A stretch of 64,000 bases of DNA from a virus, in the IMG/VR virus record IMGVR_UViG_3300008267_000013, positions 23,793-87,792 of that record. The stretch is one strand, 5' to 3'. The translations under genes were made by a program, and so were the position numbers. Numbering within the stretch: position 1 is the stretch's first letter; each line of letters starts with the position of its first letter. Below the pieces are notes generated by a model. It was not told where the DNA came from. It worked only from the letters and a program-made list of their open reading frames with translations, and did no database searches. Positions 39,191-58,655 of this stretch are shown piece by piece.

Positions 39191-39262
39191 TAGGAGTAAT
39201 AAGCACTAATTACATTATATAGTATACCACAAATAGAATAGTATTTAAATGTTTTTTGTTGT

Positions 39263-39334: not shown

Positions 39335-39339
39335 ATAAA

Positions 39340-39855: not shown

Positions 39856-39924
39856 AATTACCTCCTATTAGCCCCTCTACCATAATTAGTTAGTTGTGGC
39901 GGAAAAGGCTAACAGGAGGTGTCA

Positions 39925-40221
39925 TGGTCCCAGCTGAGCGAGTCGAACGCTCAATCCCGTAAGGGCGGTTGATTTTCTTACCACTTCAGCTTTCGCTGCC
40001 ATCTTTCGATGTTTGTGGTCTGGACTATGCCTTCACCTTTTAATCTTTCGATCAGTCAGGTGGGTGCCGTCTAGTCTCTACACGTTCTAGATATTTCTAT
40101 CTAGCTTCGCTCGGCGTTGCCAGTTAAGGGTTCACCGAATTTGACACCATTCAGATAGAGGATTTCGCCTCTACTGCTCAATTAAATAAGTCAACTGTGT
40201 ATGCCATTCCACCAAGCTGGG
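39925..40221 (-). tRNA. tRNA-Leu(UAA) with group I intron
   Basis: Exons join as GTTGA-CTT|AAAA-TCAAC; long variable arm; ACCA end. Confidence 0.92.
39977..40187 (-). ncRNA. Group I intron (compact, IC3-like) in tRNA-Leu
   Basis: AAATTCGGTGAA, GTAGAGACTAGACGG, GGCATAGTCCA core; terminal G; P1 CTT/GAG. Confidence 0.9.
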
Positions 40222-40257
40222 TTAATCTTAGTTACTAATTTTCAAAGAAGTACTCAG

Positions 40258-40549
40258 TACGACCCCTGGGAATTGAACCCAGACTCTCTCGATTATCCTG
40301 CCACTATGGCTTTCGCCACCCTTTCGGTTTGTGGTCTGGACTATGCCTTCATCTTCGCCATTACGCGGTCAGACGGGTGATTATAGTCTCTGCACGTCCT
40401 GCTTTCGCAGTTTCGCTCAATGTTGGGACGGATAACTAATTGCAAGTATATCCAGACCGTTCGTTGAATTTACACCATTCAGTATAATATTTCTACTATA
40501 CTGCTCATATTTCTAAGTCGAGTGCTTTCACCAATTAAGCTAGGGTCGT
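40258..40549 (-). tRNA. tRNA-Ile(UAU) with group I intron; no encoded CCA
   Basis: Exons join as CTCGA-CTT|ATAA-TCGAG; acceptor ACGACCC/GGGTCGT. Confidence 0.82.
40297..40514 (-). ncRNA. Group I intron in tRNA-Ile
   Basis: GCAGAGACTATAA, GAAGGCATAGTCCAGACCACAAAC core; P1 CTT/GAG; P10 ATA/TAT. Confidence 0.9.
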
Positions 40550-40685
40550 ACTCAGTACTTCTCTTTCAACCTTACAAGAGGCAGTCTATCACACCTCCGT
40601 CACACTTTCAAGTTCTTTCTCAAACTTTCTTTTGATTCCCTGCCGGGGCAGAACTTCAACCACCAGCAGGGATCAACTTCAACCT

Positions 40686-40716
40686 ATCTTAGTGGCTATC
40701 GGGCGGGTTGTCAAGT
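40686..40716 (-). promoter_or_regulatory. Sigma70 promoter; direct repeat of 41484-41514
   Basis: TTGACA-ACCCGCCCGATAGCCAC-TAAGAT; points toward the tRNA cluster. Confidence 0.8.
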
Positions 40717-40847
40717 GATCGGACACAACGAACCCGGTTCGTATTGCTCACGCCGTCGTTGCGCGGGTTGCCGTAGCCGAAGTCCAAGCCCCTGCCATGC
40801 TCCACATCGGCCAGCCGCTCGATCTCGTCCAGTTGCTCGGGGGTCAT
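40689..40847 (-). CDS. Small ORF ending in a DGR variable-repeat-like Lcl tail
   Basis: MTPEQLDEIERL...DFGYGNPRNDGVSNTNRVRCVR. Confidence 0.6.
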   Translation of the reverse strand: MTPEQLDEIERLADVEHGRGLDFGYGNPRNDGVSNTNRVRCVRSLDNPPDSH

Positions 40848-41044
40848 TTCCACTCCGTAAGACCACGAATGGCGAAGAGCTTGTCGCACGCCGCCTTCCA
40901 GTCCATCTCTTTCCGCTCCAGCAGGAACTCAAGCCTCACGATCTCGGCGTTCGCTTGCCGCAGGGCTTTGATGAGCTTCATCGGGATACCGTTCGGGTCC
41001 GACGATGCCAGAAGCTCGTACTCGTTCAGTTGCTGTGGGGTCAT
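40844..41044 (-). CDS. Hypothetical protein
   Basis: MTPQQLNEYELL; GGAGG RBS; ATGA overlap. Confidence 0.65.
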   Translation of the reverse strand: MTPQQLNEYELLASSDPNGIPMKLIKALRQANAEIVRLEFLLERKEMDWKAACDKLFAIRGLTEWK

Positions 41045-41463
41045 GACTCACCTCCAACAGAACGGACACAACGGACCCGGCGCGTAATGCCCACGACGCT
41101 GCTGTACGTGTTGCCGTGGTTGAAGTACACGCTCCACGCGAGCGCTGTAAGGCCGGACACGGGAGACGACGACCAGAACCATTCACTGGGGCAGTCAGGA
41201 AACACGCTGCACGCTGGATTGTGTGTCTCGTAGTCCACAAGAGACAGAAGCTCCCTGACCGTGGGCAGCCGCCACCCATCACCCAGAGAAGCGGCATATG
41301 CCTTGGCCCCTTCCCAAGTGAACTCCCTATCCGGCACGTCCGCCTGCCACTCAAGATCACCCACCTTCACGGTGCGGATAGATGGTCTACTCTGTGCAAC
41401 CTCCATATCAGCAAGACGTTTTTCGAGCATGGCAACACGGGCAGATAAATCTTTAACAGTCAT
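41041..41463 (-). CDS. DUF1566/Lcl C-terminal domain protein (C-type-lectin-like DGR-target fold)
   Basis: WEGAKAYA, GWRLPTVRELLSL, FWSSS, AWSVYF..G, VRCVR. Confidence 0.9.
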   Translation of the reverse strand: MTVKDLSARVAMLEKRLADMEVAQSRPSIRTVKVGDLEWQADVPDREFTWEGAKAYAASLGDGWRLPTVRELLSLVDYETHNPACSVFPDCPSEWFWSSSPVSGLTALAWSVYFNHGNTYSSVVGITRRVRCVRSVGGES

Positions 41464-41483
41464 ATGCGCCTCCCTATCCACCC

Positions 41484-41514
41484 AATCTAGTCACTATCAG
41501 GCGGGTTGTCAAGT
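41484..41514 (-). promoter_or_regulatory. Sigma70 promoter; direct repeat of 40686-40716
   Basis: TTGACA-ACCCGCCTGATAGTGAC-TAGATT. Confidence 0.8.
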
Positions 41515-41768
41515 AGTTCTTCAGTTTCCTCGTCATAGAAACCGATGTTGCCGCCGGTCACATCGTTCAAGCCCTCTACGAATCCAGCAACGAAGTCCTC
41601 ACTGTAACCGTTCCTGCGGTACTCGTCAAGAAACAGATTCATCTTTTCAATGATGTGCTTGCGAGCAAAAGCCTGCCCAGCCTCATTGCCATGCAGGTTA
41701 TCCTCAACCATCTGCTCACTATACTCGGTCATCTCGCTGCTGTCAATCTCAGTCACGATGTTATCCAT
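41487..41768 (-). CDS. Acidic hypothetical protein
   Basis: MDNIVTEIDS...; GGAGG RBS. Confidence 0.65.
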   Translation of the reverse strand: MDNIVTEIDSSEMTEYSEQMVEDNLHGNEAGQAFARKHIIEKMNLFLDEYRRNGYSEDFVAGFVEGLNDVTGGNIGFYDEETEELLDNPPDSD

Positions 41769-42062
41769 CACTAGCCTCCGTTGGAAAGTGGCATCCCATA
41801 TGCCAACACTCGCACTCACGTTCATGTTCCCACAGGCACCGTCGAGCCTGTTCAAAAGGTACAGGATCAATCGACACCATATGTGGATGCTCAGATGAAA
41901 TTACATCTCTACACTTGTCACAGAGCATTGGTTGGTGAGGATCACGCAGCATCTGGTCGCTACGGATCCGGCATCTACGGCAAGCCGGCAGCAACCCTTT
42001 CAAGTTTGTCACGGCAACCTGCACCGTTGATTCCCTAATCTTAGCCACTCTTCACCTTCCTG

Positions 42063-42275
42063 TCAAGCGTGCAACTCGTATGTGTAGTTTTTATCCATCG
42101 TGTTGAGATAACTTGTGCTGTACTCGTCTCGATCCATGTCATAGATAGAGTAGTACGGCTTACCGTTGATATCAAGAGTAACACCAGTAACAAGAAAATA
42201 TCTTGTTTCCACATGGTGTTGCTCGGAACCATAGACCCATGTGTTCTTCACAATGTCACCGATCTCGTATGTCAT
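42063..42275 (-). CDS. GD..xA family protein
   Basis: YEIGDIV...ELHA. Confidence 0.65.
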   Translation of the reverse strand: MTYEIGDIVKNTWVYGSEQHHVETRYFLVTGVTLDINGKPYYSIYDMDRDEYSTSYLNTMDKNYTYELHA

Positions 42276-42394
42276 AGATGTACTTTAAAGCTGCCACCCA
42301 CCGTTGTCAAGCAGGATGATCAGATAAAAGGTTGATGTGAGGGGGCCAGCCCCCCTGCACCCAGCTTTTTCTGCTGGGCCGGGGATGGCTAATG

Positions 42395-42440
42395 TTACTC
42401 GCGCTTCTTTAGGCCGTTCTTAAAAGTTGGGCGTTTCCAT
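42395..42440 (-). pseudogene. Displaced 3' remnant of gene 43199-44098
   Basis: Encodes KRPTFKNGLKKRE* versus ERPSYKNGLKKR* in the intact gene. Confidence 0.8.
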
Positions 42441-42471
42441 TTTTTTATACTATTTATTTTAGGAGATAAAA

Positions 42472-43197
42472 ATGACAGAAGAACAAAAAGCTTTAAAAAA
42501 AATAAAAGATAAGGAATATAGAGGTAAAAATAAAGATAAAGCAAAAGCTTGGAGGGAAGCTAATAAAGAGTACATTAAGGAATATAGAAAAAAATATTAT
42601 GAAGAAAATAAAGATGAATTATTAGAATATTATAAAAAACAGAGAGAAGAAAATCCTGGGGAGAATACTGAGCGCTGTAAAGAATATAGAAAAAATAACT
42701 TAGAAAAATTAAGAGGATACGATAGACAAAGAAGGAAGGAAGGGAAGAAAAAAGAATCCGATAAGAAATATCGCGATAAAAATAAAGATAAAGCTAAGGC
42801 ATATAAAAAAGAATATTCTAAAAAAAACAAAGATAAATTAAATGAATACAAAAAAGAATATTTGAAAGATAACCCAATGTATAGGACCCATAATCAATTT
42901 TCAAATGCTATACGAGATCATTTAAAAAAACTTTCAATTAATAAAACACGCAATTGGGAAGAATTAGTTGGTTATACCTTAGAAGATCTTATGAAGCACC
43001 TTGAATCGCTTTTCAAAGAAGGCATGACTTGGGATAACTATGGCAGTTATTGGCACATTGACCACGTTCGTCCCAAGTCATGGTTCATCTTTGAATCAGT
43101 CGAAGATCAAGCGTTCAAAGACTGCTGGGCATTGTCCAATCTTCAACCTTTGGAGGCTAGTCTCAATTGCTCTAAAGGTAACAGATACGAAGGTTAG
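42472..43197 (+). CDS. HNH endonuclease with Lys-rich helical repeats
   Basis: GMTWDNYGSYWHIDHVRP...NLQPLEASLNCSKGN; AT-rich insert in the GC-rich island. Confidence 0.9.
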   Translation: MTEEQKALKKIKDKEYRGKNKDKAKAWREANKEYIKEYRKKYYEENKDELLEYYKKQREENPGENTERCKEYRKNNLEKLRGYDRQRRKEGKKKESDKKYRDKNKDKAKAYKKEYSKKNKDKLNEYKKEYLKDNPMYRTHNQFSNAIRDHLKKLSINKTRNWEELVGYTLEDLMKHLESLFKEGMTWDNYGSYWHIDHVRPKSWFIFESVEDQAFKDCWALSNLQPLEASLNCSKGNRYEG

Positions 43198-43198
43198 T

Positions 43199-44098
43199 TT
43201 ATCTTTTCTTTAGGCCATTTTTATAAGACGGCCTCTCATGCCACTTGATAATCTTTTCAGCAACGTGTTCAGTCCCATCCTTGCCAAACCACAGAACCTC
43301 GATTAGCTTGCTGCCCTTGCCAGCACGCCAGCGACGTGTTTCTGCTGTTACCTTCATAACGGTGCCGATACGCTCAACCTCCTTGCTGGGAGTAGGAGTT
43401 GCGCCCCGGTGGACAACATCATAGTTGGAAACCCACAGGGGATCATGCCCATCATGCCCAATATAGGGATCACGCAGCTTGACAAGATCACCCGGCTCAT
43501 ACGGAGTGTCACGGTTCACTTCACGATAATGTGCAGCCTCATGGTGAGAAGTTACCGTGTTGAACATAAGGTAGGTTTCTGGACGGTTGCGATAACGCTC
43601 AGTCAGAGCTTCCGCAGCACTCCTTTCCTCCTGAGTTGAACTGTACTGGTTAACCTGCAAGCTGTTACCATAGCGATCATGCAGCCAGTATGAACTGTTG
43701 AAGAACTGCTTGTAGAAATCCTGCAAGTCCTCACGCTCGTCATACTCCTTGAGGAACTGTTCGTTTACTTCATCAAAAGCAGGGCTGGAGAAATAAGCGT
43801 ACTCAACACAACGCTCAAAGTTCCAGTTGGTCTTGACAACAGATCGGAAGTTTTCCTCGTTCACTTCCCAACGGTTGAATCGCTCGTCATAATATTCCTT
43901 TACCGTGTAAGGAGTCCCATCCTCATGGACTCCATAATAATGATTATGCTTCTGTGAACCGCGAACGACACACATATCCTTGATATTCTGTAGAGTGTAG
44001 CCCCGCGCAGGGTCCAGCATGATGCTGGCAATATTCTGTCGCTTGAGAGGGAACTTGGTGTTGGGAACAAACTTAACAATCTTCTTCTGACGCGCCAT
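43199..44098 (-). CDS. Hypothetical protein with C-terminal SH3-like domain
   Basis: 299 aa; YEPGDLV...IEVLWFG. Confidence 0.75.
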   Translation of the reverse strand: MARQKKIVKFVPNTKFPLKRQNIASIMLDPARGYTLQNIKDMCVVRGSQKHNHYYGVHEDGTPYTVKEYYDERFNRWEVNEENFRSVVKTNWNFERCVEYAYFSSPAFDEVNEQFLKEYDEREDLQDFYKQFFNSSYWLHDRYGNSLQVNQYSSTQEERSAAEALTERYRNRPETYLMFNTVTSHHEAAHYREVNRDTPYEPGDLVKLRDPYIGHDGHDPLWVSNYDVVHRGATPTPSKEVERIGTVMKVTAETRRWRAGKGSKLIEVLWFGKDGTEHVAEKIIKWHERPSYKNGLKKR

Positions 44099-44134
44099 GT
44101 GTCACCTCACCCGTCCATCGGGGATATTGACAAT

Positions 44135-44425
44135 CTATAACGGGATGCTGCTGCTGTCAAGCGCCTGCTTGCAATCTTCGCAACAATCTTTCGACAACTC
44201 TTTCCACGGTACCTTTGGCAGATTAAGGATTGCTTTTCTAACCTGCTCCCGCACACCATAATGAAAACAGTTTATTATATTGTAAGAGGTAAAGTTTCCA
44301 ACTCCTCTGGGGGTTACATTATGTGTGATTGTACATACCAGTTCAAAATCAGACAGTGCGATTAGCTCGCTCGCCAGTTTCTTCAAGCCTTCCTCGTCTA
44401 GCTTGTTTGACGGTATCCGCATCAC
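44135..44425 (-). CDS. Hypothetical protein
   Basis: AGGAGG RBS; promoter at 44465-44470. Confidence 0.6.
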   Translation of the reverse strand: MMRIPSNKLDEEGLKKLASELIALSDFELVCTITHNVTPRGVGNFTSYNIINCFHYGVREQVRKAILNLPKVPWKELSKDCCEDCKQALDSSSIPL

Positions 44426-44790
44426 GTCCTCCTGTCCACTCTATATAGAGCAGGCTGCTTCGCCTGTCAAGCTGGCGGGGCATAAGAAAAGGGAGTAGAG
44501 GGAGGGCTAGCCCCCTCAGCCAACCTTTAATTCCCAGCCGGGGAGGTTGACTAGAAGGAGGGGGCGGGGTACATTAAGAACATCAGGAGGACGGAACAAA
44601 TGGACTGGGACAACTTAGACGAGGAGATGGAGTGGGAGGGGGAGGACTGGTGTTGGGATGATGATATGCCGACTCCCGTTCACAATGCTTGGTGGTACGA
44701 CTTGACTGCTGAAGGTTAGTGTACTAGATTAACTTTTACGGGGCAATTGAGCCTCACACAAGCTGGCTAATCCAGCATCGGAGCAAGACA

Positions 44791-45108
44791 ATGGCTGCTA
44801 CCCGCGAGAACGTTCTGGCTGCTATCGTGAAGTACGTTGAGGATCATGGTCGCCGCGCCCCTGCCAAGGCTATCGCTGAGGCTGTTGGTGACAAGCTGCC
44901 GGTTGTGCAGGGCATCATCAAGGAGCTGGTCGCTGCTGGTTCTATTGAGTCGAGCCGTGGACGCAACGGCGGTGCAAAGCCCTCTGGTCAGAACATTGAC
45001 AAGGTTGAGGTTGAGACTGCTGCGTCCGACGAGGACATGGCCGCACAGTTTGCGGCACTTGTCAACCAGCTTGAGCAGGATGCAGAGGCCCAGGCCGCTG
45101 TTGGTTAG
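44791..45108 (+). CDS. Winged-HTH protein
   Basis: AKAIAEAVG...VQGIIKELVAAGSIESSRGRNGG; hairpin downstream. Confidence 0.8.
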   Translation: MAATRENVLAAIVKYVEDHGRRAPAKAIAEAVGDKLPVVQGIIKELVAAGSIESSRGRNGGAKPSGQNIDKVEVETAASDEDMAAQFAALVNQLEQDAEAQAAVG

Positions 45109-45340
45109 TTAACAATAGCAAAGGGTACAGGGGCCGCTCTCCATGTCGGGGGGCGGCCTCGTTGCATAGGTGCCTAAGATAGCACCCCCACCGCAGTAGA
45201 CAAGGGTGAATAAACTTTTTTTAGCAGGTAAAAAAGAGGGGTCGAAGAGGGCTAGCCCCTCCCGATTCCCGTTTTTTTCTGTAGACTCCCGGCGGGCTCT
45301 CGACTACTTTGACAATGTACCCACCACGGAGGAACACAAT

Positions 45341-45997
45341 ATGGCAAAGCTCCCTTGGATTCTCGGCAATGCGAAGTTGCAAAAGACTAGCGGCAATGGG
45401 TTCGGACGTGTTATTGGGTACGGGATCCCCCCAGACTTCGACTTCGAGGTTGACGGGAGTAACTTTAACACGTGTCCTGGTGCTCTTGCCTGTCGTGCCG
45501 TCTGCTATGCAAAGCAAGGCGCATATAACTGGCCGGCAACCAAGGCGGCGCGTCAACGTGCTCTTGAATCCACCCTCAGTCAATCGTTCGTTGACGATGC
45601 GGTCGCGGACCTTAAGCGGATGCGCGGCGTTGGTGTTGTACGTATCCACGACAGCGGTGATTTCTATTCGCAGACGTATCTGGACAAGTGGGTTGCAATT
45701 GCCCGTGCGTTCCCCAATATTATCTTTTACGCCTACACCAAGAGTGTCACGCTTGACTTCACAGGCATTCCCGAAAACTTCCGCGTCACCTTTTCGCTGG
45801 GTGGTAAGTATGATTCACAGGTTGACCTGAGCAAGCCGCACTCCCGTATCTTCACAACGCATGAGGATATGGAGCGGGCGGGATATGTAGACGGCGGCAA
45901 AAGCGATGCCCCGGCGATTCAAGGGCTGGTCAAGATCGGCCTCCCTTGGCACGGTGTTAAGAATCTAACAGACTCTCAAAAGAAGTTTTTCCGATAG
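45341..45997 (+). CDS. GP88-like phage protein (Cys motif, radical-SAM-like)
   Basis: GNAKL, TCPGALACRAVCYA, RIHDSGDFYS, FYAYTKS. Confidence 0.8.
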   Translation: MAKLPWILGNAKLQKTSGNGFGRVIGYGIPPDFDFEVDGSNFNTCPGALACRAVCYAKQGAYNWPATKAARQRALESTLSQSFVDDAVADLKRMRGVGVVRIHDSGDFYSQTYLDKWVAIARAFPNIIFYAYTKSVTLDFTGIPENFRVTFSLGGKYDSQVDLSKPHSRIFTTHEDMERAGYVDGGKSDAPAIQGLVKIGLPWHGVKNLTDSQKKFFR

Positions 45998-46338
45998 TGT
46001 AAAGCCCCACGGTGTCCAAAAAAAGGATGCCGAAGGGGGCTGGCCCCCTACCCCACCACTTTTCTGATGGCAGGGAGGGAGACCAGTCTTTTTTAGATAA
46101 GGAAACGCACGTTGCCCCTATTCTACCGCCCTAGAGTCAACGTGGAGACGCGATCGTCATCTTTGCGACACGGTATCGCCTAATAACCTTGCCGCCCTTC
46201 CTGAGGGGATTAACGTTGTTTAATTCCTGACAGCATGAGCGGGCATTCTTTCGCATGGTGAAGATAGCATCCTCGATCCGGCGCCAATTATTGCCAACAC
46301 GCTTTAGAACGGTATAGATATGATTCTTCTTTGTTGTC

Positions 46339-46566
46339 TTAATCGTCATCATCCATCTCCTCATCTGGCATGTCGTCAAGCTCTTGAGCGGCACGGTTAG
46401 CTAGAAACCCCATCTGTTTAACTTCATCGTCAGAGAAGTCATCTAGTTCAATATCTAAACCATATTCATCCTTGATCTCCAGGATTGATACCCGCCCGGT
46501 ATGTGAGACCTCGGCCAGAATATCATATTGACCAAAGTCATCCCGGAAGTTATAGTTGACGCGCAT
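46339..46566 (-). CDS. Small acidic protein
   Basis: D/E-rich, GAGG RBS. Confidence 0.65.
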   Translation of the reverse strand: MRVNYNFRDDFGQYDILAEVSHTGRVSILEIKDEYGLDIELDDFSDDEVKQMGFLANRAAQELDDMPDEEMDDDD

Positions 46567-46567
46567 T

Positions 46568-46744
46568 CTAGATCCCCTCCTCTACAACGATGTATGAAAC
46601 ACCTGTAGACTTGAGGCGACTGTTTAATACCTCCGCTCGATCAATAGCGGCCTGCTTATCCTTGAAACGTAGCGGCTGGCCATCGAATTGGACAACATGT
46701 CCGCCACTTGCGTAGATTGCTTTTATAACCCAATTTGTTTGCAT
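46568..46744 (-). CDS. Small protein, paralogue of 25904-26119 (not in ORF track)
   Basis: MQTNWVIK...DGQPLRFKDKQAAIDRAEVLN; AGGAG RBS. Confidence 0.6.
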   Translation of the reverse strand: MQTNWVIKAIYASGGHVVQFDGQPLRFKDKQAAIDRAEVLNSRLKSTGVSYIVVEEGI

Positions 46745-47170
46745 TTATTCTCCTGTGCCTTGAGGCACGTTATCATCAGTCTCGATCTTGGACTTGTTAC
46801 GGCGAATCCTCTTCCTCTTCAATTCGCGGTCATATTCAATAGAAAGGCAGCTCATCTTCTCAGGAACAGGAACCTCCCGTGCCTTAGCCTTGCGTGAGCC
46901 GCAGTTATCACACTTCGCACAGTCAAGGTGGTTGATACCACGGCAGCTACTATTAACGCACCGCCATGCGAAACCAGCCCGCACAAGAATACCACCAAGA
47001 ACAGCATACTCGTCTGCATCGTAGTTGTCAAGGTCAACAGCAGCAATCAGTCGATCAACAAAACCTTCGGTGAATTGCGTCTTGAGACGAACAGCAAAGT
47101 TATTCTTTCCACCCTTCTCGATCTCAGTCTGTGCGTCAACACTCTCGATATTATCCATGGCAACCTCCAA
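46745..47170 (-). CDS. Hypothetical protein with RanBP2-like Zn ribbon
   Basis: WRC...CRGINHLDCAKCDNCG. Confidence 0.65.
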   Translation of the reverse strand: MEVAMDNIESVDAQTEIEKGGKNNFAVRLKTQFTEGFVDRLIAAVDLDNYDADEYAVLGGILVRAGFAWRCVNSSCRGINHLDCAKCDNCGSRKAKAREVPVPEKMSCLSIEYDRELKRKRIRRNKSKIETDDNVPQGTGE

Positions 47171-47905
47171 AGTTAGTTAGCGTGACGGTAGTTAGCAGCA
47201 TCCCACTCAACAGGCAAGCTAATCTCATAATGCACATATTGTTGCCAATCAGCATAACCAAGCGACTGTGCGAGGCGGTCACGCTCCTCAACACTCATCA
47301 TGTCGTCGGTGCGACCAACAATCTTCTTGACCTTGTTGTAAACCATGTCAAACATAACAACCCCCAAGGTGAGCCAAGCCATGATCATATAAGTCGGCAT
47401 CTGTGTCCTCCCGTTCAACTGAAGCTATATTCTCATGAGACGGGGATGGTTGCAACAAAGAAAAAGATGTAAGCGGAGGGGCTAGCCCTCCCCGGTCCCG
47501 GTTTATATTCAGCCGGGTGGGAGGCAATCCTACAAGAAGAACTTGACAACGAATGCAGTTGCAACGCCACCAGTCAAGGCACCAAGGAGGAGCGAATAAC
47601 GCACAAGATTAACAACCTGCTCATCGTTGAAGGAATAGGAGATGGAGTTAACAGACGACAGACGCTTTGAGACGCGCATGAGAAGCCTCCAGGGAGTTGG
47701 TGAGTCTTTGTAGATCATGGCAACCGCCGGAACATATCATACCATTGCTGGACAAGCAACGCATAAGTTTCTGTGATGGAACCGCTACTCTTCTTCTTCG
47801 TTGGCTTCTTCCCGCCAGTCCTCTTCCTCTTGGCGATTGTACTCTTTTTTTGATCGGTGTGGTCCACTTTTTGTTACCCCTTGGATGATGCGAACCATGT
47901 GAATG

Positions 47906-48151
47906 TCACGCGTTCTTATTCGTGAACTTCCAGCCATCAGGCGCCGTTTCATTCCACACCTCGCGTGCATACTCGGGGTCGATCACATCAAGGTCGGCAA
48001 AAAGATCAGAAACAACTTTATAGCTATCACGACCCTTGGTCCACACGCCATGATCGTCGCTGTAATCATACCACCAATCATGACGGCTCATCACGTTGCG
48101 GAGCTGGGTGGCAACAGTTTCACGGTCCTTGAGGATGGGGAGATTGTTCAT
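47906..48151 (-). CDS. Hypothetical phage protein
   Basis: HDWWYDYSDD motif; AGGAG RBS. Confidence 0.7.
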   Translation of the reverse strand: MNNLPILKDRETVATQLRNVMSRHDWWYDYSDDHGVWTKGRDSYKVVSDLFADLDVIDPEYAREVWNETAPDGWKFTNKNA

Positions 48152-49328
48152 CTGTGTTCTCCTAGCAGCACCGTGCTGCCTATGAACTGATATTACGTCA
48201 GGACGGGTCAGCGTACAAGATAAAAAAACGGTGATGAAAAGGGGCTAGTCCCCCTTGCCAACCCTTTTATGGGCTGGTGGGGGCATCCCATATGTTGCGG
48301 CTGGGTGGTACCGCCGGGGCCTAATACACCCCTTCCAGTTCTGCACTTGTATCATACCATGCGGCCAGAGGGCAAGCCTCATCCTGCCAGTCGGTCATCT
48401 CCTCATAAGCCTCACGGCTGTCAACCTTCTGACACTCATGGAGGGCCATGAGTTCAACAGGCGGCGGAGCGATGTAACCAACAACACCCTCACGCTCCAG
48501 AGCCTCCTCGCGCTCGACAAGCTCTTCGGCTTCACGGTCAGTCATGGGGGGAACCTCGTCAGAGAAAAGGTGCTGGTGGGCTTCGGTCAAGGTCATGGTG
48601 TCTCCAAGATTGCGACAGCGGCGCAGGGCTTCAATGAAGTTGGTGTCGTGGTGACGCATCTTTTGTCTCCAGAGTTGATCTAGTCTAGTGTCCTGCAATC
48701 TAGTTGTCAAGCCGGTACATGGCGGCAACAATGATGAGGGCAACTACAAGGGAAGAGAAAAAGATGTTCATGATGCGGTCGTTGTTCATGTTTGACTCCG
48801 TGTCGTGCGCTGTTGATGAAGTGATATTCTCATGGAACCGGCAGGGTGACAAGATAAAAAAAGGGTGCAGGATAGGGGCTGGCCCCCTCTGCCAATCCTT
48901 TTTGGACTGGCTGGGGTCTTAGCCTATCGGGGTTCGGAGTCCTTCACCAGCTGTTCAAACTGGTCATACACCCGCTGCCGGTTGCCGTTCAGTTTGTAGA
49001 CACGTTTAACGTGGGCATACATGGAACCCCCTCTGTGCTTCAATCCAGCAAGCTCTAGCTTCAGAGCCGAAAGCTGGGTCCGCATATGATACCAGTTGAT
49101 CGATTGCAGGCCCGTGATCAATGACATAGCTTCTCCTTCTCGTCCCCATAATCACCAGAGCAGCAGGGGCCGCAGATTGCAACCTCCTGTCCATTGATCG
49201 CCCCAACAACACCATGCAGGGAGGGATCGAAGTAGACCCCGCAGCAGTTGCACCTCTTGTCCATTAGAGCGACCTCCCGGGGTTGGTGGCAACAGCCACG
49301 ATGGCAATGATGATAAACGTCATTGAGA

Positions 49329-49574
49329 TCAAAGGTCACACTCCTTCCAGCTCATGCCATTCATCGCCATGAGCTGACGCAGCCCACCCTGCTGGCAGCT
49401 CGTTGTCACACTATAACGTCCGCTGTTCAATGTCAAGACACCATCCTTCCTACAGAGTAGCGGAGTGTTATAAGAAAAAATGATGCTGCCATCAGTCCAG
49501 ATCGAAGTGGACTTGCGGCAAGTCTTGCCTGCGTTCCAAGCATTGAAGGCATCCTGAACATTCTTGCGGGCCAT
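49329..49574 (-). CDS. Hypothetical early protein
   Basis: MARKNVQDAF...IFSYNTPL...YSVTTSCQQ; GGAGG RBS. Confidence 0.65.
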   Translation of the reverse strand: MARKNVQDAFNAWNAGKTCRKSTSIWTDGSIIFSYNTPLLCRKDGVLTLNSGRYSVTTSCQQGGLRQLMAMNGMSWKECDL

Positions 49575-50062
49575 GGCATCCTCCGTTGTGTGCCGTCTTG
49601 ATGTGTCTAATCTCTCATGGGTTGACTGCCTTGGCAAGAAGAATAAACGATTGCTTGTGGGGGCTAGCCTGCCACGATCAACCTTTTTCCTGGGCAGCAT
49701 ATAAACTTTTTTAAAGCTTGACTGGCATGAACACTTTTATTTTTATGTATGGGGTGGTGGGGAGGGGAGGTGGTCATACTGCAAGATGTCACAATATAAG
49801 TCCCTAGAGATATTAAAAAGGGTTAAAAACGGGCATAACCCTCGCACCAACTCCCGGAAAAATTCTCATTTTTGAAACATATAATATTTTAAGAAAACTT
49901 TAACATGTGTTATATTAATCGTCAACAAAAATTTTTTTAAAAAATTTCTAGGATTTCTTCTTGTCTACTGTTTAAATAACTGGTAGTCTATATACAATAT
50001 ATTTTGTTATCTTTATTTAAAAAAATATCTACTTATAGTATACAGGAGAGCAATCAAATATT

Positions 50063-50830: not shown

Positions 50831-50860
50831 TCAAATAACATTACAGAAAGGTAGTATATA

Positions 50861-51923: not shown

Positions 51924-52519
51924 TTATAACTTTTATCGATACTGAAACAACTGGGCTGGATCTTATGCAGCATGAGGTTATCGAACTTGGAATGCTTCGT
52001 GTTCATGTCGATAAATCCTGGACTCATTCCAAAATGGAATGTTTTGAAGCCAAGATTAAACCTAAATTTATTAAACGAGCATCACCACAAGCTTTGAAAG
52101 TCAATGGTTATACAGCTGATAAATGGAAAAAAGCTATCAAGGCAATAGATGTTTTGCCAATTTATAAAGAATGGGTTGAGAGTTCTGATTACCTTGCTGG
52201 TCAAAATTTAATTTTTGATTATAATTTTATTAATCAACTTTTTGATCGTGAAGAAATAGAACGTCCACAATATCCCAAGTATTTTGATACTAAGAAAATG
52301 GCGGAAGAGCTTGTCAAGAACGGTACAGTTAAAAGAACTTCATTAGATTATCTATGTGAAAATTTTAATATACATACAACCGGTAGAGCACATACCGCTC
52401 TAGCCGATGTTATGCGTACTTTTGAATTGTTTAAAAAATTATCTGAAACAGTTAAACCAAACGCATTATCGTTTAATAAACCATATGATCCTTTCGCGGA
52501 GCGTGAAAAAAATGGCTGA
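51920..52519 (+). CDS. dnaQ: DEDDh 3'-5' exonuclease (DnaQ/epsilon-like)
   Basis: DTETTG, QNLIFD, AHTALAD. Confidence 0.9.
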   Translation: MIITFIDTETTGLDLMQHEVIELGMLRVHVDKSWTHSKMECFEAKIKPKFIKRASPQALKVNGYTADKWKKAIKAIDVLPIYKEWVESSDYLAGQNLIFDYNFINQLFDREEIERPQYPKYFDTKKMAEELVKNGTVKRTSLDYLCENFNIHTTGRAHTALADVMRTFELFKKLSETVKPNALSFNKPYDPFAEREKNG

Positions 52520-52947
52520 TCCTTTAAAAGATTTGACACCTGATGAAAGAAAGATAGTCAACATTTTGTCATATGGATCACCAGCTGCCAAGCAAGAAGT
52601 TATAATTAAATTGATCTATCTTGGAAAACCAGAAGTATTAGCTAAAGTATTAAATTCAATGTCTGATGCTGATTATTATAAAGTTATGCCTTCTGGATAA
52701 CTAATTATTATAGGAGGGTATTTTATGATTCCTGCCTATATCATCGAAAGTGATAGAAAAAAGCAACAAAATGAAGAAGGAATACAACTAGAAATACCCG
52801 ATTACACTAGAGAATATGAAGAATATTTAAAGCATAAACAAGAAGAAACCGAGCAACAGCAGCCTGAAACAGTAATTATAATAGATATTTATTAAAATAA
52901 AAGACTACTTATGGTATATATTTAAAACCATAGGTAGTTTTTTTATT

Positions 52948-53526
52948 ATGCTTGATGCCGAAACACAACAATTAGCACGCAGCTTATATAAATTTATGAA
53001 AAAAAAGTTTGGATTCACTTCCAAACCACATATTAAATTTAAATATAGCGAACAAAATGCCGCTAATCATCTTGGGATGACTGGTCACTACGACCCTGAT
53101 TCTGAAGAAATAGTTATATTTTGTGCAAATCGTCATCCAAAAGACATCCTACGGTCACTAGCACACGAACTAATGCACCATATTCAAAAACATGAAGGCG
53201 TGTTAAACCCCGAAGACGCAGCTTCAGAGGGTGATCCAAACTATATCGTTCACGATAAATACTTGGAAAAGATTGAAGCTGATGCTTTTGATCGTGGTAA
53301 TATTGCATTTAGATTCTGGGAGGCGGAACAAAAAATGAATGGTCATGATAAATTATTAAATCAAGAAGAGCAAGTTCAAAAAGAAAATAAAGAAATTAAT
53401 GTTAATCCTGCACTAAAAGATTCAGTAGTATATGTAAAAGATGATAGAGCTTGTAATGATCTATACAACAATAGAGAAGAAACTGTTTTTCAAGATCTAT
53501 TAAAGAAATTTGGGATTAAAAAATAA
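52948..53526 (+). CDS. Zincin-like metallopeptidase
   Basis: RHPKDILRSLAHELMHH...EADA. Confidence 0.75.
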   Translation: MLDAETQQLARSLYKFMKKKFGFTSKPHIKFKYSEQNAANHLGMTGHYDPDSEEIVIFCANRHPKDILRSLAHELMHHIQKHEGVLNPEDAASEGDPNYIVHDKYLEKIEADAFDRGNIAFRFWEAEQKMNGHDKLLNQEEQVQKENKEINVNPALKDSVVYVKDDRACNDLYNNREETVFQDLLKKFGIKK

Positions 53527-53528
53527 CA

Positions 53529-54653
53529 ATGGCTACTAAAAAAATACAAGAAATGAATGCAGCTGGTGGCGGTTCTGTCGGTTCTGTACAGGGTACAGCA
53601 GGTGGTTTTAGACGCCGTTATAACAGAGCAGCAAAAAATAAAGGGCAACCATTTCAGGTTGCCCCGGAAGTTACTGGTGAGAGCGTGTTACGTGAAGCAA
53701 TACGTAAATTAGTATTCCTAAATCGCATTAAATATCACGAAGAAAATGTTAAACGCGAAATGCAAGAGCAAAAATTACGTAAAGTAATTCGTTATTTGTT
53801 AAGAGAAGGTGACGACGCTCTTGAGGGTGCTCTTGATACAACTGGGCAAACCGCTGCATTTAAATTTTTACAAAAAGTAGAAACAACGACTTTTAAAAAT
53901 TTCTATAGTAATCTAAAAACTTCTAGAAAACAAAGAAGAGAATTTAAAAAAATGTATCTAACCGGTGTTAAGGTATACCTTGATGCCCTCGATCAACAAT
54001 ATTATATTTTAAACCCGCAAGCCAAACAGGGCGGTTCAGCACCAGCTATGCCAACTGGAACACCAGTTTCACCTGTGGCAGCACCAGTAGCAACGGCTCC
54101 TATAGCTGAGGCTACAAAGCCAGTAAATCCTGCTGCATCAGGTGTAGCAGACAGTATTTCATCTGATACTGGACACATACAAAAGCAGGCTATTAGTGCT
54201 GCTGTTAGTCCAAATGTCTCTGCGTCTGGCGATGAAACAATTAAAGCAGCAATCGAAAACGCTAAAGATGCTCTAAAAGCAGACTTAGCACAAATAGATA
54301 ATCTGTATTTTAACTTAAGTTTTAAAGAATTTACTACTAACACAGGTAGATCAACCAGTGATCGTAGAGATTTTAGACTATTTTTAATAGGCGATGAAGG
54401 AACTGTAGGAAACTTACAAGTTAAATTTAAACAATATAATCTTGCCAATCCAATTAAGAATACAATACCAGACGATATCCCAGACGAGGATTCAGACGAA
54501 GCAAGTCCAATTCTTGATGTGCCGAAAGATAGCGCAGCAGGCAGCGCTCCACCTCCAGAAGCACCGGCAGCAGGAGCAACACCACCACCACCGGCAGCAG
54601 ATGGAGCTCCAATTCCGCCTCCTGAAGGTGAGCAACCACCAGAACAAGCATAA
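53529..54653 (+). CDS. Hypothetical protein with Pro/Ala-rich tail (putative virion protein)
   Basis: LREAIRKL and LRKVIRYLLREG motifs. Confidence 0.6.
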   Translation: MATKKIQEMNAAGGGSVGSVQGTAGGFRRRYNRAAKNKGQPFQVAPEVTGESVLREAIRKLVFLNRIKYHEENVKREMQEQKLRKVIRYLLREGDDALEGALDTTGQTAAFKFLQKVETTTFKNFYSNLKTSRKQRREFKKMYLTGVKVYLDALDQQYYILNPQAKQGGSAPAMPTGTPVSPVAAPVATAPIAEATKPVNPAASGVADSISSDTGHIQKQAISAAVSPNVSASGDETIKAAIENAKDALKADLAQIDNLYFNLSFKEFTTNTGRSTSDRRDFRLFLIGDEGTVGNLQVKFKQYNLANPIKNTIPDDIPDEDSDEASPILDVPKDSAAGSAPPPEAPAAGATPPPPAADGAPIPPPEGEQPPEQA

Positions 54654-55002
54654 AGGAAAAATAAAATGAATACTTTAAAAAGAAAAAAATTATATAGAAT
54701 AAACATGGCTACCAAAAATGTATCTGACACTGTAGCAGAAGTTGCTCCAAAAGTCGAACAACCTGTAGCAGAAGTTGAAAAACAGCTTCCGGTAGCATTA
54801 AAAGACGAACCAGTTGTTGCTGTAGAGGTAGTTGAAGCGGTAGAGATGCCAGTAGCAGAAGTAGTAGTTACAGAAGAAGTACAAGAAGAAGTAATAACAG
54901 ATACAGAAGAAAATAAAGAAGTAAAGAAAAACGTACTTCCTAAATTTAAAAAATTCAAAAAAGATGTTGAAGTAGGAGAGTAGTTACTGTATACTGTTCT
55001 TC

Positions 55003-55350
55003 ATGAAAACTATATTTGAAGAAACAGCAGAGAGAATAGGTAAATTAGTAGCAGAAAAGAACGTAGCTTACGGAAGTTCTTTTTCACAAGCTCACAAAAT
55101 TCTAGAGGTGCTGTATCCACAAGGTATAGCACCTCATCAATTTACTGATGCACTTGCAATTATTAGGGTAGTAGATAAGCTTTTTAGAATCGCAACTAAA
55201 AAAGATGCTTTTGGAGAAAGTCCTTGGCAAGATATTGCTGGCTATGCAATACTTGGTGTAGTAAAGGCTGAAAATGAATCCAGACAGATGGATACTGAAC
55301 GAAACAAAAAGATGGACCTCCTTACTGAAGAAGCTGAGGAAAGAAAATAA
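55003..55350 (+). CDS. Nucleotide-modification-associated domain (Nmad1/DUF1599-like) protein
   Basis: EKNVAYGSSF, RVVDKLFRI, WQDIAGYAILG. Confidence 0.75.
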   Translation: MKTIFEETAERIGKLVAEKNVAYGSSFSQAHKILEVLYPQGIAPHQFTDALAIIRVVDKLFRIATKKDAFGESPWQDIAGYAILGVVKAENESRQMDTERNKKMDLLTEEAEERK

Positions 55351-55714
55351 AAGTAGTGAAGAGTTTGAGGTTATGTTAAATAATCTTACATTAGAAGAAT
55401 TAATTGCAATGAAGTTAGAATTATCTTCTAAAACTCTAAGAAGCCCATTATTTGGTACCCCTATCTGGGAGCATATACCACAGATAGTGCAAGATGCTGT
55501 ACTAGTGTTTGCTATATCCACTACACAAACTTACAATGAAGCTGCAGCATTTCTTGGAATGACACCATATAAATTATTTAGATTAATAAAAAAATATAAA
55601 ATTGATAACTACTTAGATTTAAATTATAAAGAAAAGTTTTGGAAGCGTAGAGAAGAAAAAGCCAGACAAAAACAGGAATATTTAGATGGTAAAAAAAATA
55701 CAGAGCAAGTCTAA
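55274..55714 (+). CDS. Fis-like HTH protein
   Basis: EAAAFLGMTPYKLFRLIKKYKI; start uncertain. Confidence 0.6.
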   Translation: MNPDRWILNETKRWTSLLKKLRKENKSSEEFEVMLNNLTLEELIAMKLELSSKTLRSPLFGTPIWEHIPQIVQDAVLVFAISTTQTYNEAAAFLGMTPYKLFRLIKKYKIDNYLDLNYKEKFWKRREEKARQKQEYLDGKKNTEQV

Positions 55715-56019
55715 TACGTTTAAAAAAGTCTTAATATCTCTAGGCATTGGTGCTATGATTAGCACAGTTGTATGGTTAGTTCTTGACAGAAGAGCAGTTC
55801 ATAATATGGTATGTCAAATAGTAGCTGTAGATGAACAAGAAGGCATTGTAGCAGTTAGGTGTTTGGCAAAATGAGTATGTTTGCAGTATGTTTTATGATA
55901 CAATGTGCTAATGTATGTGCAGAAATTATTGTTAATAACGATGCTTCATATTCTGTTGGAGAGTTTAAGATTGTAAATTATGATGAGGAGTGCTTAAGAA
56001 ACGAAAATAAATAAATTTA

Positions 56020-56058
56020 TGGGGATATAGCTCAACTGGTAGAGCACCGCGTTTGCAA
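56020..56058 (+). pseudogene. 5' half of a disrupted tRNA-Ala(UGC)
   Basis: GGGGATA-TA-GCTC-AACTGGTA-GAGC-A-CCGCG-TTTGCAA then breaks; matching 3' end ATCTCCACCA at 56721-56730. Confidence 0.8.
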
Positions 56059-56062
56059 AAGA

Positions 56063-56584
56063 CTAACCCCATCTTCCTGATTTTGTTAAATAATGTTGTT
56101 CATCGTGACATCTAGAACATAAAATAATTAAATTATCTAAAGAATTGTTTTCTCTATTTCTATCTTTATGATGAACTTCTAAAATTTGAGGAATCTTGTT
56201 ATAACCACACTCAGCACATTCGTTAGGAAAATTTCGAAGAGCTATTTCTCGATAGTTGCTAGAACCACCAGAATAATGTGGAGGATGAATTTCTTTTAAA
56301 CCAAATTCTAATCTTTGTGCTAAATCTTTATGTTCTCTACAGCAAAAATGTAAATTTGATTTAGATGTCTTTTTTTTAGAATTATTTTTGTAGAACATTA
56401 CATGACAATAACTACATTCGACATTAGGTATATTAATTTTAGCGTTTCTTTCTAAGTGAGTTTTAGAAACACCAATTTTTGAACATTTTTTAGAACAATA
56501 TTTAGCATTGCCTCTATTTACTTCACGTGATTGTGCTTGAAAAATTTCCTTACATTCCTTACAAATTTGTGATATAGTTTTCAT
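56063..56584 (-). CDS. HNH homing endonuclease
   Basis: CAECG...LEVHHKDRNRENNSLDNLIILCSRCH plus N-terminal Zn repeats. Confidence 0.9.
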   Translation of the reverse strand: MKTISQICKECKEIFQAQSREVNRGNAKYCSKKCSKIGVSKTHLERNAKINIPNVECSYCHVMFYKNNSKKKTSKSNLHFCCREHKDLAQRLEFGLKEIHPPHYSGGSSNYREIALRNFPNECAECGYNKIPQILEVHHKDRNRENNSLDNLIILCSRCHDEQHYLTKSGRWG

Positions 56585-56598
56585 AGTTAACCTTTAGT

Positions 56599-56676
56599 GG
56601 GTCGCGGGACTGCATAGTGTGGTCACCTGTCTTGCACACAGGAAATCAGCTCGAAGCATTATCGAGGCGATCCACC
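56599..56676 (+). tRNA. tRNA-Ala(UGC), non-canonical
   Basis: GGGTCGC/GCGATCC+ACCA with G3:U70; loop CTTGCAC; T-loop AGCATTA. Confidence 0.75.
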
Positions 56677-56873
56677 ACTAATATATAGTGGAGAAATATA
56701 AATTTACACCAAAATAATTAATCTCCACCACTGAAGAGAGCGCATAAGAGCATGCCCCTGACGCTGAAGTCTTATGCGGTTAACGCGACGGAAAAGGGAT
56801 GCATACCTGAGTACAGACTCTCTCTTATATTGCAATATAAATCATTTGCGTCTGGAATAGACGAAGGAGGCAA

Positions 56874-57150
56874 GATGAGTGATGAATCAGAGCAAGTTGT
56901 TAATGGTGACCCTTGGACCAATGAACGTTATCTATCTTCTTATGAAGAGGCGACATTTTTAAGAGACAGTCTAAAGGCAAGGGACCATTCTGGAACTCTA
57001 CAAGTTAAAATTAAGCGATGCGGTGTTGGTGGAACTTTATATGTTGTTAAAAGCCGCCAATCTAAAGAACTACGTGCCGCTACAGCTGCTGTAGAAGAAG
57101 AACTAAACGCCCCCAAACCAGCCAAGAAATCAAAAAAAGCTAAAAACTAG
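56874..57150 (+). CDS. Hypothetical protein
   Basis: AAGGAGG RBS before MSDESEQ. Confidence 0.65.
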
Positions 57151-57159
57151 GGGTATAAA

Positions 57160-57756
57160 ATGTTTAGATTAACTTCAGAACAAGAACAAACCAAAACCAA
57201 GGCCGAGGAAGCAGAGGACGAATCCTCAGTAGAAACATCTGGATGTAAGATATTTTATTATTCAGAAGTCAATAGAGACTCTGTATTGAGTCTAAACAGA
57301 CAACTTATCGACCTTTCAAATAAATTATTAAACGCTTCAAATGTTTATGAAATCCCAGTACCACATATTAAATTACATATAAACAGTGGTGGTGGAAGTT
57401 TACTTGACGGATTCGCAGCGGTGGACTATATTAAAGCTTGCAAGGCCCCGGTTCACTCAATTATTGATGGAAGCGCTGCTAGTGCGGCAACTCTTATGAG
57501 CGTGGTAGCACAAAAACGTAGCATTCATAAGCACTCATTTATGCTTATCCATCAATTATCGGGCGGTATGTGGGGTAAATACGAAGATATTGTTGATGAT
57601 TTTAAAAATTCTACAAGGTTTATGGAGACAATCAACACTATATATACCCAACATACCAAGATCCCTGCTAAAGAACTAAAAGAAATGTTAAAAAGAGATT
57701 TGTGGTTTGACGCAAAAACTTGTCTCAAGTATGGTCTTGTAGACGAAATTATCTAA
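57160..57756 (+). CDS. clpP: ClpP-like serine protease (copy 2)
   Basis: INSGGG, GSAASAA (Ser), MLIHQ (His), RDLWF (Asp), YGLVDEI. Confidence 0.92.
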   Translation: MFRLTSEQEQTKTKAEEAEDESSVETSGCKIFYYSEVNRDSVLSLNRQLIDLSNKLLNASNVYEIPVPHIKLHINSGGGSLLDGFAAVDYIKACKAPVHSIIDGSAASAATLMSVVAQKRSIHKHSFMLIHQLSGGMWGKYEDIVDDFKNSTRFMETINTIYTQHTKIPAKELKEMLKRDLWFDAKTCLKYGLVDEII

Positions 57757-57771
57757 AGGAGAAAGTAAGTA

Positions 57772-57957
57772 ATGAAGAAAGTAATTTTAGTAGCAATTCT
57801 AGTAAGTGTTATCGGTTTTGTAGCTGGCTGTGTAAATGATCCAACTGTAGATCAACGTACCATGACTGATACTTCAACTGATACAGGCAGCGAAGTAAGT
57901 GTAGACGTAACCAGCACCTCAACTGGTACCGAAACAAGTACAGAAGTTGCGAATTAA
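57772..57957 (+). CDS. Thr/Ser-rich lipoprotein
   Basis: Signal peptide with lipobox VAG-C. Confidence 0.7.
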   Translation: MKKVILVAILVSVIGFVAGCVNDPTVDQRTMTDTSTDTGSEVSVDVTSTSTGTETSTEVAN

Positions 57958-57966
57958 TAATAAAAG

Positions 57967-58041
57967 GCGGGTGTAGTTCAGTGGTAGAACTTTAGTTTTC
58001 CAAACTAAATGTCGCTGGTTCAACCCCAGTCACCCGCTCCA
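57967..58041 (+). tRNA. tRNA-Gly(UCC)
   Basis: GCGGGTG/CACCCGC+TCCA; loop TTTCCAA. Confidence 0.92.
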
Positions 58042-58364
58042 CTTGAGATGTCCGTTGAAAGTTCTAGTCCATAATGAAGACCTCAACGCCGAGAACAAAA
58101 CGGAAGGCGCTGGTCAACTTAACAAGGAGAATAAATGTCGCTAAAGCATGACTTCTGCCACAATAGAAAAATGAAATTAATTGCTTATGAAGAAATGATT
58201 GATGAGAAAAGTTACATTTTTATTCGTTGTGCTGGAGAAGAAATGCGTATGCCAATAGCGGCATGGCGTGAATTAAATGCAGCATGGAATGAAAAAGCAT
58301 GGGATGAAAAATTTGATGTTCTACAAGACTGCATCCCAGAAATTCAGGAAGAGCTATAGTTTAT

Positions 58365-58655
58365 TGGTCAGTAGCCAAGCGGCAAGGCAGCGAGCTGTAA
58401 ATTAGCAGCGTTTGATAGAAATATCAAAATGAAAAGATTGTAATATCAAGGAACCCTCTGTTTGAACTTTAAACGTGGCAATCTTGAGCCAAGCAAAAGT
58501 AGAAATACTTTTGAAGGTGCAGAGACTATAATCAGTCCATCTTAACGTAAAGCCGAAGATGATGGAATAGTCCAGACCACAAACCGAAAGGGTAGCGAAA
58601 GCTATAGTGGTAAGTAACTCGCCTAGCGTAGGTTCGATTCCTACCTGACCAGCCA
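58365..58655 (+). tRNA. tRNA-Asn(GUU) with group I intron
   Basis: Exons join as GCGAG-CTGT|TAA-CTCGC; acceptor TGGTCAG/CTGACCA+GCCA. Confidence 0.9.
58399..58614 (+). ncRNA. Group I intron in tRNA-Asn
   Basis: GCAGAGACTATAA and ATAGTCCAGACCACAAAC core; P1 GCTGT/GCAGC; P10 TAA/TTA; terminal G. Confidence 0.9.

Follow-up and report, generated by a model that had tools for sequence, protein, structure and literature searches.

Compact ORF-less group I introns of one family in three tRNA genes of a phage, probably acquired separately

Group I introns of the IC3 subgroup are classical residents of bacterial tRNA-Leu, tRNA-fMet, tRNA-Ile(CAU) and tRNA-Arg genes. In this study, we report on a stretch of virus DNA of 64,000 nucleotides (the window), which comprises bases 23793-87792 of the 87.8-kb IMG/VR virus record IMGVR_UViG_3300008267_000013, estimated to be 43% complete, and which carries split genes for tRNA-Leu(UAA), tRNA-Ile(UAU) and tRNA-Asn(GUU). 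Very likely, each of these three tRNAs of a large, uncultured phage holds an IC3-type group I intron free of any open reading frame (ORF), the three introns belonging to one family and having been acquired separately.

With the cyanobacterial tRNA-Leu(UAA) intron lineage, the window Leu intron shares the U34/A35 insertion site, the CUU/GAG P1 helix, the IC3 core and the P9 domain. Unlike the cyanobacterial introns, it is hosted by a phage tRNA, and the closest relative found lies in an Acidobacteria genome. The Azoarcus intron is, like those of the window, a compact (about 200 nt) ORF-less IC3 ribozyme of the anticodon loop with GAAA in L2 and L9, and GAAA tetraloops are also a feature of the Anabaena IC3 intron. 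However, the Azoarcus intron follows position 36 of a CAU tRNA, whereas the window Ile intron follows U34 in the anticodon UAU, and the P9 of the window introns differs in enclosing two hairpins.

Collaborative homing was reportedly described in 2009 by Zeng, Bonocora and Shub in cyanophage S-PM2, in which an ORF-less psbA intron lies adjacent to a gene for the free-standing endonuclease F-CphI. Common to the window and this system are a group I intron that lacks an ORF and, next to the interrupted gene, a free-standing gene for a nuclease of the homing type. In S-PM2, though, the interrupted gene encodes a protein and nuclease activity was shown at the bench, whereas the HNH endonuclease of the window is predicted from its sequence. 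Another free-standing homing endonuclease, SegB, is located in the tRNA cluster of T-even phages and acts on tRNA gene DNA (PMC13096335). The likeness here is that of a homing-type nuclease gene embedded in a phage tRNA cluster; SegB differs in being a GIY-YIG rather than an HNH enzyme, and no introns are involved. According to a 2014 review (PMC3984707), all phage introns known at that time were in protein-coding genes, despite the numerous tRNA genes of phages, and our searches turned up no open-access account of group I introns within phage tRNAs after that date.

The insertion sites of such introns have been catalogued by Williams 2020 (bioRxiv 10.1101/2020.01.27.920355), a survey which covers bacterial and archaeal assemblies but not phages and distinguishes 21 settings in bacterial genomes, Asn.4Ug included. 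The seeds of its alignment include Asn.4Ug, Leu.3Ug, Thr.3Ug, Arg.3Ug, Lys.3Ug and others, many of them with the same 3' signature as the window introns. An initial annotation of the window had called the Leu(UAA) site classical; this is borne out by the U34/A35 position of the Leu intron and by the Leu.3Ug seeds of the survey, and the intron can be regarded as a plain member of the classical tRNA-Leu lineage. The same annotation had described the Ile and Asn sites as less familiar. For Asn this does not hold, the site being already catalogued for bacteria as Asn.4Ug, although its sole Asn.4Ug seed has another P9 and an extra domain after P7 and is unlike the window Asn intron. Ile(UAU).3Ug has no seed in the alignment.

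Detection, junctions and fold of the split tRNA genes

ARAGORN, run with introns allowed, placed tRNA-Leu(taa) at c[39925,40221] with a 211-nt intron, tRNA-Ile(tat) at c[40257,40549] with a 218-nt intron and tRNA-Asn(gtt) at [58365,58655] with a 216-nt intron, in exact agreement with the identities, coordinates and intron lengths of the initial annotation. The spliced sequences of all three formed canonical cloverleaves in ARAGORN. By default, ARAGORN recovered two of the five window tRNAs; tRNA-Leu, tRNA-Ile and tRNA-Asn went undetected both by it and by the Rfam tRNA model, each of which found only tRNA-Thr and tRNA-Gly. The introns had been described as ORF-less, and indeed no sense-strand ORF longer than 34 aa was present within any of them. 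An antisense ORF of 94 aa across the Asn intron was taken as spurious; it is broken up in a relative, the 1.9-kb metagenome contig Ga0172373_10125634 (L466), which was found by a targeted pattern.

A search with a group I model had been suggested as a check alongside the initial annotation. The Rfam group I intron model RF00028, with a curated cut-off of 50 bits, matched the Asn (59.7 bits) and Leu (51.4 bits) introns above this level but the Ile intron below it (34.7 bits, E = 3.9e-5), and nothing else in the whole 87.8-kb record. The Ile intron of L466, which is 92% identical to that of the window, scored 42.7 bits.

Read from the sequence, the 5' splice sites follow U34 in Leu and Ile and U35 in Asn, the positions given initially, and a terminal G (omega G) stands at the aligned column in all three introns. 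The P1 helix is CUU/GAG in Leu and Ile and GCUGU/GCAGC in Asn, with the U at position -1 opposite a G (U.G) in each case, and P10 is AA/UU in Leu (2 bp), AUA/UAU in Ile (3 bp) and UAA/UUA in Asn (3 bp). In Leu, the 5' exon ends in CUU, the guide is UU-GAG and the 3' exon begins with AAAA. In Ile, between exon ends CUU and AUAA, the UAU of the guide UAU-GAG pairs with AUA (P10) and its GAG with CUU (P1), and in Asn, between GCUGU and UAAC, the UUA of the guide UUA-GCAGC pairs with UAA (P10) and its GCAGC with GCUGU (P1). An alternative Ile junction, giving the anticodon GAU, was rejected since it would require a GGUC-type guide, and none is there. Over 12 site types of the family, P1 and P10 together averaged 6.4 bp with exons of the intron's own type versus 2.9 bp with exons of other site types, which upholds the earlier claim that the guides co-vary with the exons.

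The expected course of splicing is that of two homologous introns, those of Anabaena tRNA-Leu and Azoarcus tRNA-Ile. In the folded precursor, the end of the 5' exon would pair with the internal guide to form P1, in which a U.G pair marks the splice site, and free guanosine would cut at this U.G. The bases immediately 5' of the guide would hold the 3' exon (P10), the terminal G would be exchanged and the exons would be joined, to leave the anticodon loops CUUAAAA (Leu UAA), CUUAUAA (Ile UAU) and CUGUUAA (Asn GUU).

The fold was examined with RNAalifold, applied to a MAFFT alignment of 26 introns of the family that occupy different tRNA sites. Helices P2, P3, P4, P5, P6, P6a, P8 and P9 were recovered, with two inner hairpins (labelled P9a and P9b) enclosed by P9, and compensatory changes were seen in 31 of 41 consensus pairs. 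The blocks GAGACUA and AUAGUCC, invariant in the family alignment, were taken as the P7 strands. GAAA tetraloops occur in L2 and in the P9 hairpins of the window introns, which are compact (211-218 nt) and have no P5abc. The three introns can be assigned on these features to group I and to the IC3 tRNA type, a subgroup called by likeness to known members and not by a classifier.

Family breadth and origin of the introns

The 18-mer ATAGTCCAGACCACAAAC occurs in three exact copies in the window, against 0.06 expected by chance. It was also found, exact, in at least 118 IMG/VR viral contigs and at least 120 bacterial genomes. The seed alignment of Williams 2020 likewise contains this 3' domain, in Leu.3Ug, fMet.2Ug, Thr.3Ug and Arg.5Ug seeds among others. 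The 18-mer is a marker of the 3' domain throughout the IC3 tRNA-intron family, and its sharing is therefore uninformative on kinship within the window genome. The initial annotation was thus right that the 18-mer and similar 3' ends are present in all three introns, but these do not denote a private kinship.

Relatives were gathered by exact sequence patterns, so that all counts are minima. Junctions were re-derived under three requirements, namely that the intron be preceded by a U, end in G and form P1; most of the raw ARAGORN anticodons of split genes ('Tyr ata', 'Stop tta', 'SeC tca') reflected misplaced junctions. The automatic rule misplaced a few rows, and the window Leu junction was corrected by hand. 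The viral loci were chiefly Leu(UAA).3 (at least 57), CAU.2 (at least 13) and Leu(UAA).2 (at least 4), followed by Asn.4, Arg(UCU).3 and Arg(UCU).2 (at least 3 each), Glu(UUC).3 (at least 2) and Lys(UUU).2, UCA.3, Gln.4 and Ile(UAU).3 (at least 1 each in this census). The bacterial loci were chiefly Leu.3 (at least 59), Arg(UCU).3 (at least 29) and CAU.2 (at least 8), and the family as a whole occupies 12 or more settings in the anticodon loop. C32-U33-U34 and GAG make up the shared P1 of the '.3' sites, and the introns there are anticodon-specific only in the three bases 5' of the guide (UAU in Ile, UAG in Arg, UUG in UCA, UAC in Thr). As only these three bases vary, a move between U34 tRNAs would need about three substitutions.

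Searches for further relatives gave varied results. Blastn against deposited phage genomes returned just partial matches to intron cores, an exact 26-mer of the tRNA-Ile 5' exon had no match in viral contigs, and a 3'-junction pattern with 14 specified bases gave chance matches only. A tighter 3'-junction pattern identified at least two viral Ile.3 introns, and a still more specific one identified Ile(UAU).3 in at least 25-30 (roughly) metagenome contigs. Separately, the viral contig L057 carries group I introns in two adjacent tRNA genes, at 12982-13172 and 13592-13790 (62.6 and 70.2 bits), so the possession of several split tRNAs is not unique to the phage of the window.

The three window introns are 60-74% identical to one another, Ile and Asn being the closest pair at 74%, and every one of them is more similar to an intron that occupies the same tRNA site in another genome. 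The Leu intron is 79-82% identical to the Leu.3 intron of a Pyrinomonadaceae metagenome-assembled genome (L278, Acidobacteriota), with tree support of 99/97. For Asn, the relative is the Asn.4 intron of L078, a viral contig of 168 kb (85% identity; support 99/97). The Ile intron is 92% identical to the Ile.3 intron of L466 (support 100/100), and this pair is nested in a clade of CAU.2 and Leu.2 introns (98/89). The existence of a closer same-site relative for each intron favours three separate acquisitions by the phage, which would be a better reading than copying within its genome.

The family tree requires 18 changes of site label, the least possible number being 10, and a single clade of all Ile.3 introns was rejected (7e-9). 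The starred branches of the tree force at least three origins of Ile(UAU).3. Site switching across the family is thus real and repeated, but old relative to the window genome.

The introns are more alike than the exons around them. In Ile (compared with L466), identity is 92% for the introns and 69% for the exons; in Asn the values are 85% and 74%, and in Leu 79-82% and 64%. This excess indicates that the introns probably moved laterally into cognate tRNA genes. The gene order in L466 is tRNA-Ile with its intron, an HNH gene, an intronless tRNA-Leu(UAA), tRNA-Asn with its intron, and tRNA-Lys; the split tRNA-Asn (1485-1757) was overlooked by ARAGORN and its intron scored 72 bits with the group I model in Rfam. 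The Leu intron is therefore present in the window tRNA cluster and absent from the related L466 cluster. Differences between the Ile introns of the window and L466 are concentrated in P6/P6a and are compensatory, with both sides of pairs changed, which implies that the fold is under selection. An extra tRNA-like sequence with an acceptor stem and a T arm was noticed in L466 at about 1395-1478, just upstream of the split tRNA-Asn. Besides that of L278, two further Acidobacteria introns are also close to the window Leu intron, and the Acidobacteria kinship may be a weak lead on host range or on the intron donor. The protein encoded next to the split tRNA-Asn (58773-59177) was used as bait for syntenic loci in related phages, and no relatives were found.

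Several points weigh against the account of three separately acquired introns of one functional family. The score of the Ile intron lies under the curated cut-off, and self-splicing is predicted by homology only. The census, drawn by exact patterns, is biased and incomplete, and the trees are based on a MAFFT alignment of about 190 columns from which P1 was trimmed automatically. The excess of intron over exon identity could also partly reflect rapid change of phage tRNA exons. With these points counted in, the account was still held to be very likely. One modestly new aspect of it is the Ile(UAU) U34 site, a recurrent setting with more than one origin, and another is a phage-rich clade in which site switching is frequent.

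Spread and maintenance of the introns

In the AT-rich genes of the phage, the share of AUA among Ile codons is 30-36%, that of UUA among Leu codons 33-38% and that of AAU among Asn codons 70-73%, so the split tRNAs serve its favoured codons. The introns would be selfish passengers, obliged to splice well because the split tRNAs read codons that are heavily used by the phage. Their very large bacterial and phage family has colonised many anticodon-loop sites by altering the 5-8-nt guide alone. As for the means of spread, we infer that it was probably by nucleases supplied in trans, such as those of HNH genes beside such tRNAs, or by reverse splicing.

The HNH_3 gene of the window (here HNH39) is encoded on the same strand as tRNA-Leu and starts 69 nt downstream of it. 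This arrangement would suit collaborative homing, in which the putative HNH39 nuclease cleaves the intronless tRNA-Leu(UAA) or other tRNA genes of competitors at or near the anticodon, and repair copies in the intron, which protects its own allele. Of 25 HNH hits in 118 viral loci, 22 were no more than 500 nt away from the signature of an intron (odds ratio 13, p = 9e-8). An HNH gene was present within 400 nt of 12 of 65 intron-bearing tRNAs, compared with 24 of 313 intronless ones (p = 0.017), and these 12 HNH genes were all co-oriented with the tRNA, six of them directly downstream. Some of the HNH genes near intron-bearing tRNAs sit within longer introns. Additionally, an HNH39-like protein adjoins the Leu.3 intron of another viral locus (L103), and a second HNH cassette in the window genome splits a tRNA-Ala right after the anticodon. 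On the other hand, of the 25 IMG/VR loci that code for the nearest HNH39 relatives, 24 are without a tRNA in the vicinity, the HNH of L466 is unrelated and lies directly upstream of an intronless tRNA-Leu(UAA), and no HNH gene stands beside the tRNA-Asn of the window. Moreover, HNH genes may favour tRNA clusters anyway, as SegB does in T-even phages, and the comparison with intronless tRNAs is confounded by clustering. Homing of this kind is accordingly considered possible, though somewhat unlikely.

A broader form of this proposal, which we regard as more tentative still, is that phage tRNA clusters form a contested zone of two cooperating selfish elements. A phage-rich radiation of IC3 introns would retarget any U34 or U35 loop by means of a 3-8-nt guide, and co-oriented, free-standing HNH nucleases would cut the tRNA anticodon DNA of competitors, the introns spreading through the breaks and rendering their own tRNA genes immune to the nucleases.

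The introns might instead be retained because they benefit the phage, by shielding the anticodon-loop DNA from homing nucleases at large or by gating tRNA maturation (for instance through its timing or the level of GTP). In the window genome, tRNA genes are indeed a target of HNH elements, and the split tRNAs decode the phage's commonest A/U-ending codons. Such a benefit is nevertheless improbable, as carriage is patchy, with no Leu intron in L466 and with most phage tRNAs of the same clusters intronless; the signature of lateral transfer suits a selfish element, and no sign of regulation was found in the analysis centred on the window.

The initial annotation had favoured transposition among tRNAs, in which one founder intron would have moved within the phage genome into the other two tRNAs and had its guide retuned. 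All three introns do have the 18-mer and the P9 domain in common, and the 74% identity of Ile and Asn points the same way. In a preliminary tree, built when no closer relatives of the Ile intron had yet been found, that intron sat with Asn.4 on a long branch; this grouping was lost on the addition of L466. Against transposition, the 18-mer is family-wide, the Ile, Asn and Leu introns pair with those of L466, L078 and L278, respectively, and a clade of the three window introns was rejected, being 114 log-likelihood units worse (p-AU 3e-6; p-AU 0.022 in a smaller set). Transposition among tRNAs thus stands for the family, with its 18 site changes, and is very improbable within this phage.

It is just as improbable that the introns have decayed, with splicing lost and the three tRNA genes dead: the sub-threshold score of the Ile intron (34.7 vs 50 bits) and the loss of one terminal P9 pair in it (A-C) would fit, but all 51 family-invariant alignment columns are kept in all three introns, P1, P10 and the terminal G are intact, the changes relative to L466 are compensatory, the spliced products are canonical cloverleaves and the demand for the matching codons is high.

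Neighbouring features and implications

The features of the split genes and of the adjoining endonuclease gene are listed in Table 1.

Table 1. Positions in the window of the exons, introns, guides, signature and nuclease gene
Feature	Position	Strand	Basis
tRNA-Ile(UAU) 5' exon, ends C32-U33-U34	40515..40549	-	Intron-allowing ARAGORN and sequence
Ile intron, 218 nt, ORF-less group I (IC3-type), from first base past U34 to terminal G	40297..40514	-	RF00028 34.7 bits, E 3.9e-5; 92% identity to L466
Ile intron guide UAU-GAG	40504..40509	-	Read from sequence; guide/exon matching across family
tRNA-Ile(UAU) 3' exon	40257..40296	-	ARAGORN; spliced cloverleaf
tRNA-Leu(UAA) 5' exon	40188..40221	-	ARAGORN and sequence
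Leu intron, 211 nt, ORF-less group I, classical U34/A35 site	39977..40187	-	RF00028 51.4 bits; sister is Pyrinomonadaceae Leu.3 intron
Leu intron guide UU-GAG (P10, then P1)	40177..40181	-	Sequence
tRNA-Leu(UAA) 3' exon, long variable arm, encoded CCA	39925..39976	-	ARAGORN, cloverleaf fold
HNH_3 endonuclease gene, free-standing, 171 aa	39340..39855	-	Pfam PF13392, E 5e-13
tRNA-Asn(GUU) 5' exon, ends C32-U33-G34-U35	58365..58398	+	ARAGORN and sequence
Asn intron, 216 nt, ORF-less group I, between U35 and U36	58399..58614	+	RF00028 59.7 bits; 85% identity to L078 Asn.4; homologue in L466
Asn intron guide UUA-GCAGC	58402..58409	+	Sequence; family guide/exon matching
tRNA-Asn(GUU) 3' exon, encoded CCA	58615..58655	+	ARAGORN, cloverleaf fold
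Signature 18-mer (P7 3' strand, P9.0, P9 5' strand)	58567..58584 (+); 40011-40028 (-); 40327-40344 (-)		Sequence matches

The leader and trailer of tRNA-Ile are complementary (40246-40265 and 40543-40562) and lengthen the acceptor stem from 7 to 20 bp, with a single mismatch; the resulting helix may be a processing stem. The split tRNA-Ile and tRNA-Leu are located inside a 16-kb island (34000-50000) of about 50% G+C in a genome of about 36% G+C, and the codon usage of the island differs, AUA making up 10% of its Ile codons versus 30-36% elsewhere.

Between the HNH39 gene and tRNA-Thr, a tRNA-like gene with the loop CUUCUAA (Arg UCU) occupies 39262-39335 (-) and was detected neither by ARAGORN nor by the Rfam tRNA model. 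Its 7-bp acceptor stem is joined directly, bases 8-9 being absent, to a D arm with a stem of 4 bp and a loop of 5 nt. The anticodon stem has 7 bp, the T arm is normal and CCA is encoded, and the sequence folds into a cloverleaf with z = -3.3. The interrupted tRNA-Ala lies at 56020-56730, where a canonical 5' half is broken off immediately after UGC and is followed by an antisense HNH gene (56063-56584; Pfam HNH/HNH_3) and then by a complete, non-canonical tRNA-Ala-like sequence; the matching tRNA-Ala 3' end, ATCTCCACCA, reappears at about 56721. In the tRNA clusters of two other phages, matches to the Rfam 'freshwater-1' RNA were observed at L062:7522-7582 and L095:7711-7771 (58.9 bits, below the cut-off of 72).

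The window shows three tRNA introns in one phage, from a family that is common in phages, laterally mobile and able to switch sites by tiny changes of its guide. Since standard tRNA finders overlook intron-split genes, phage tRNA repertoires, and the analyses of codon supply based on them, are undercounted. If phage tRNA clusters do prove to be zones contested by introns and HNH nucleases, intron-split tRNAs would mark competition of phage against phage rather than neutral baggage.

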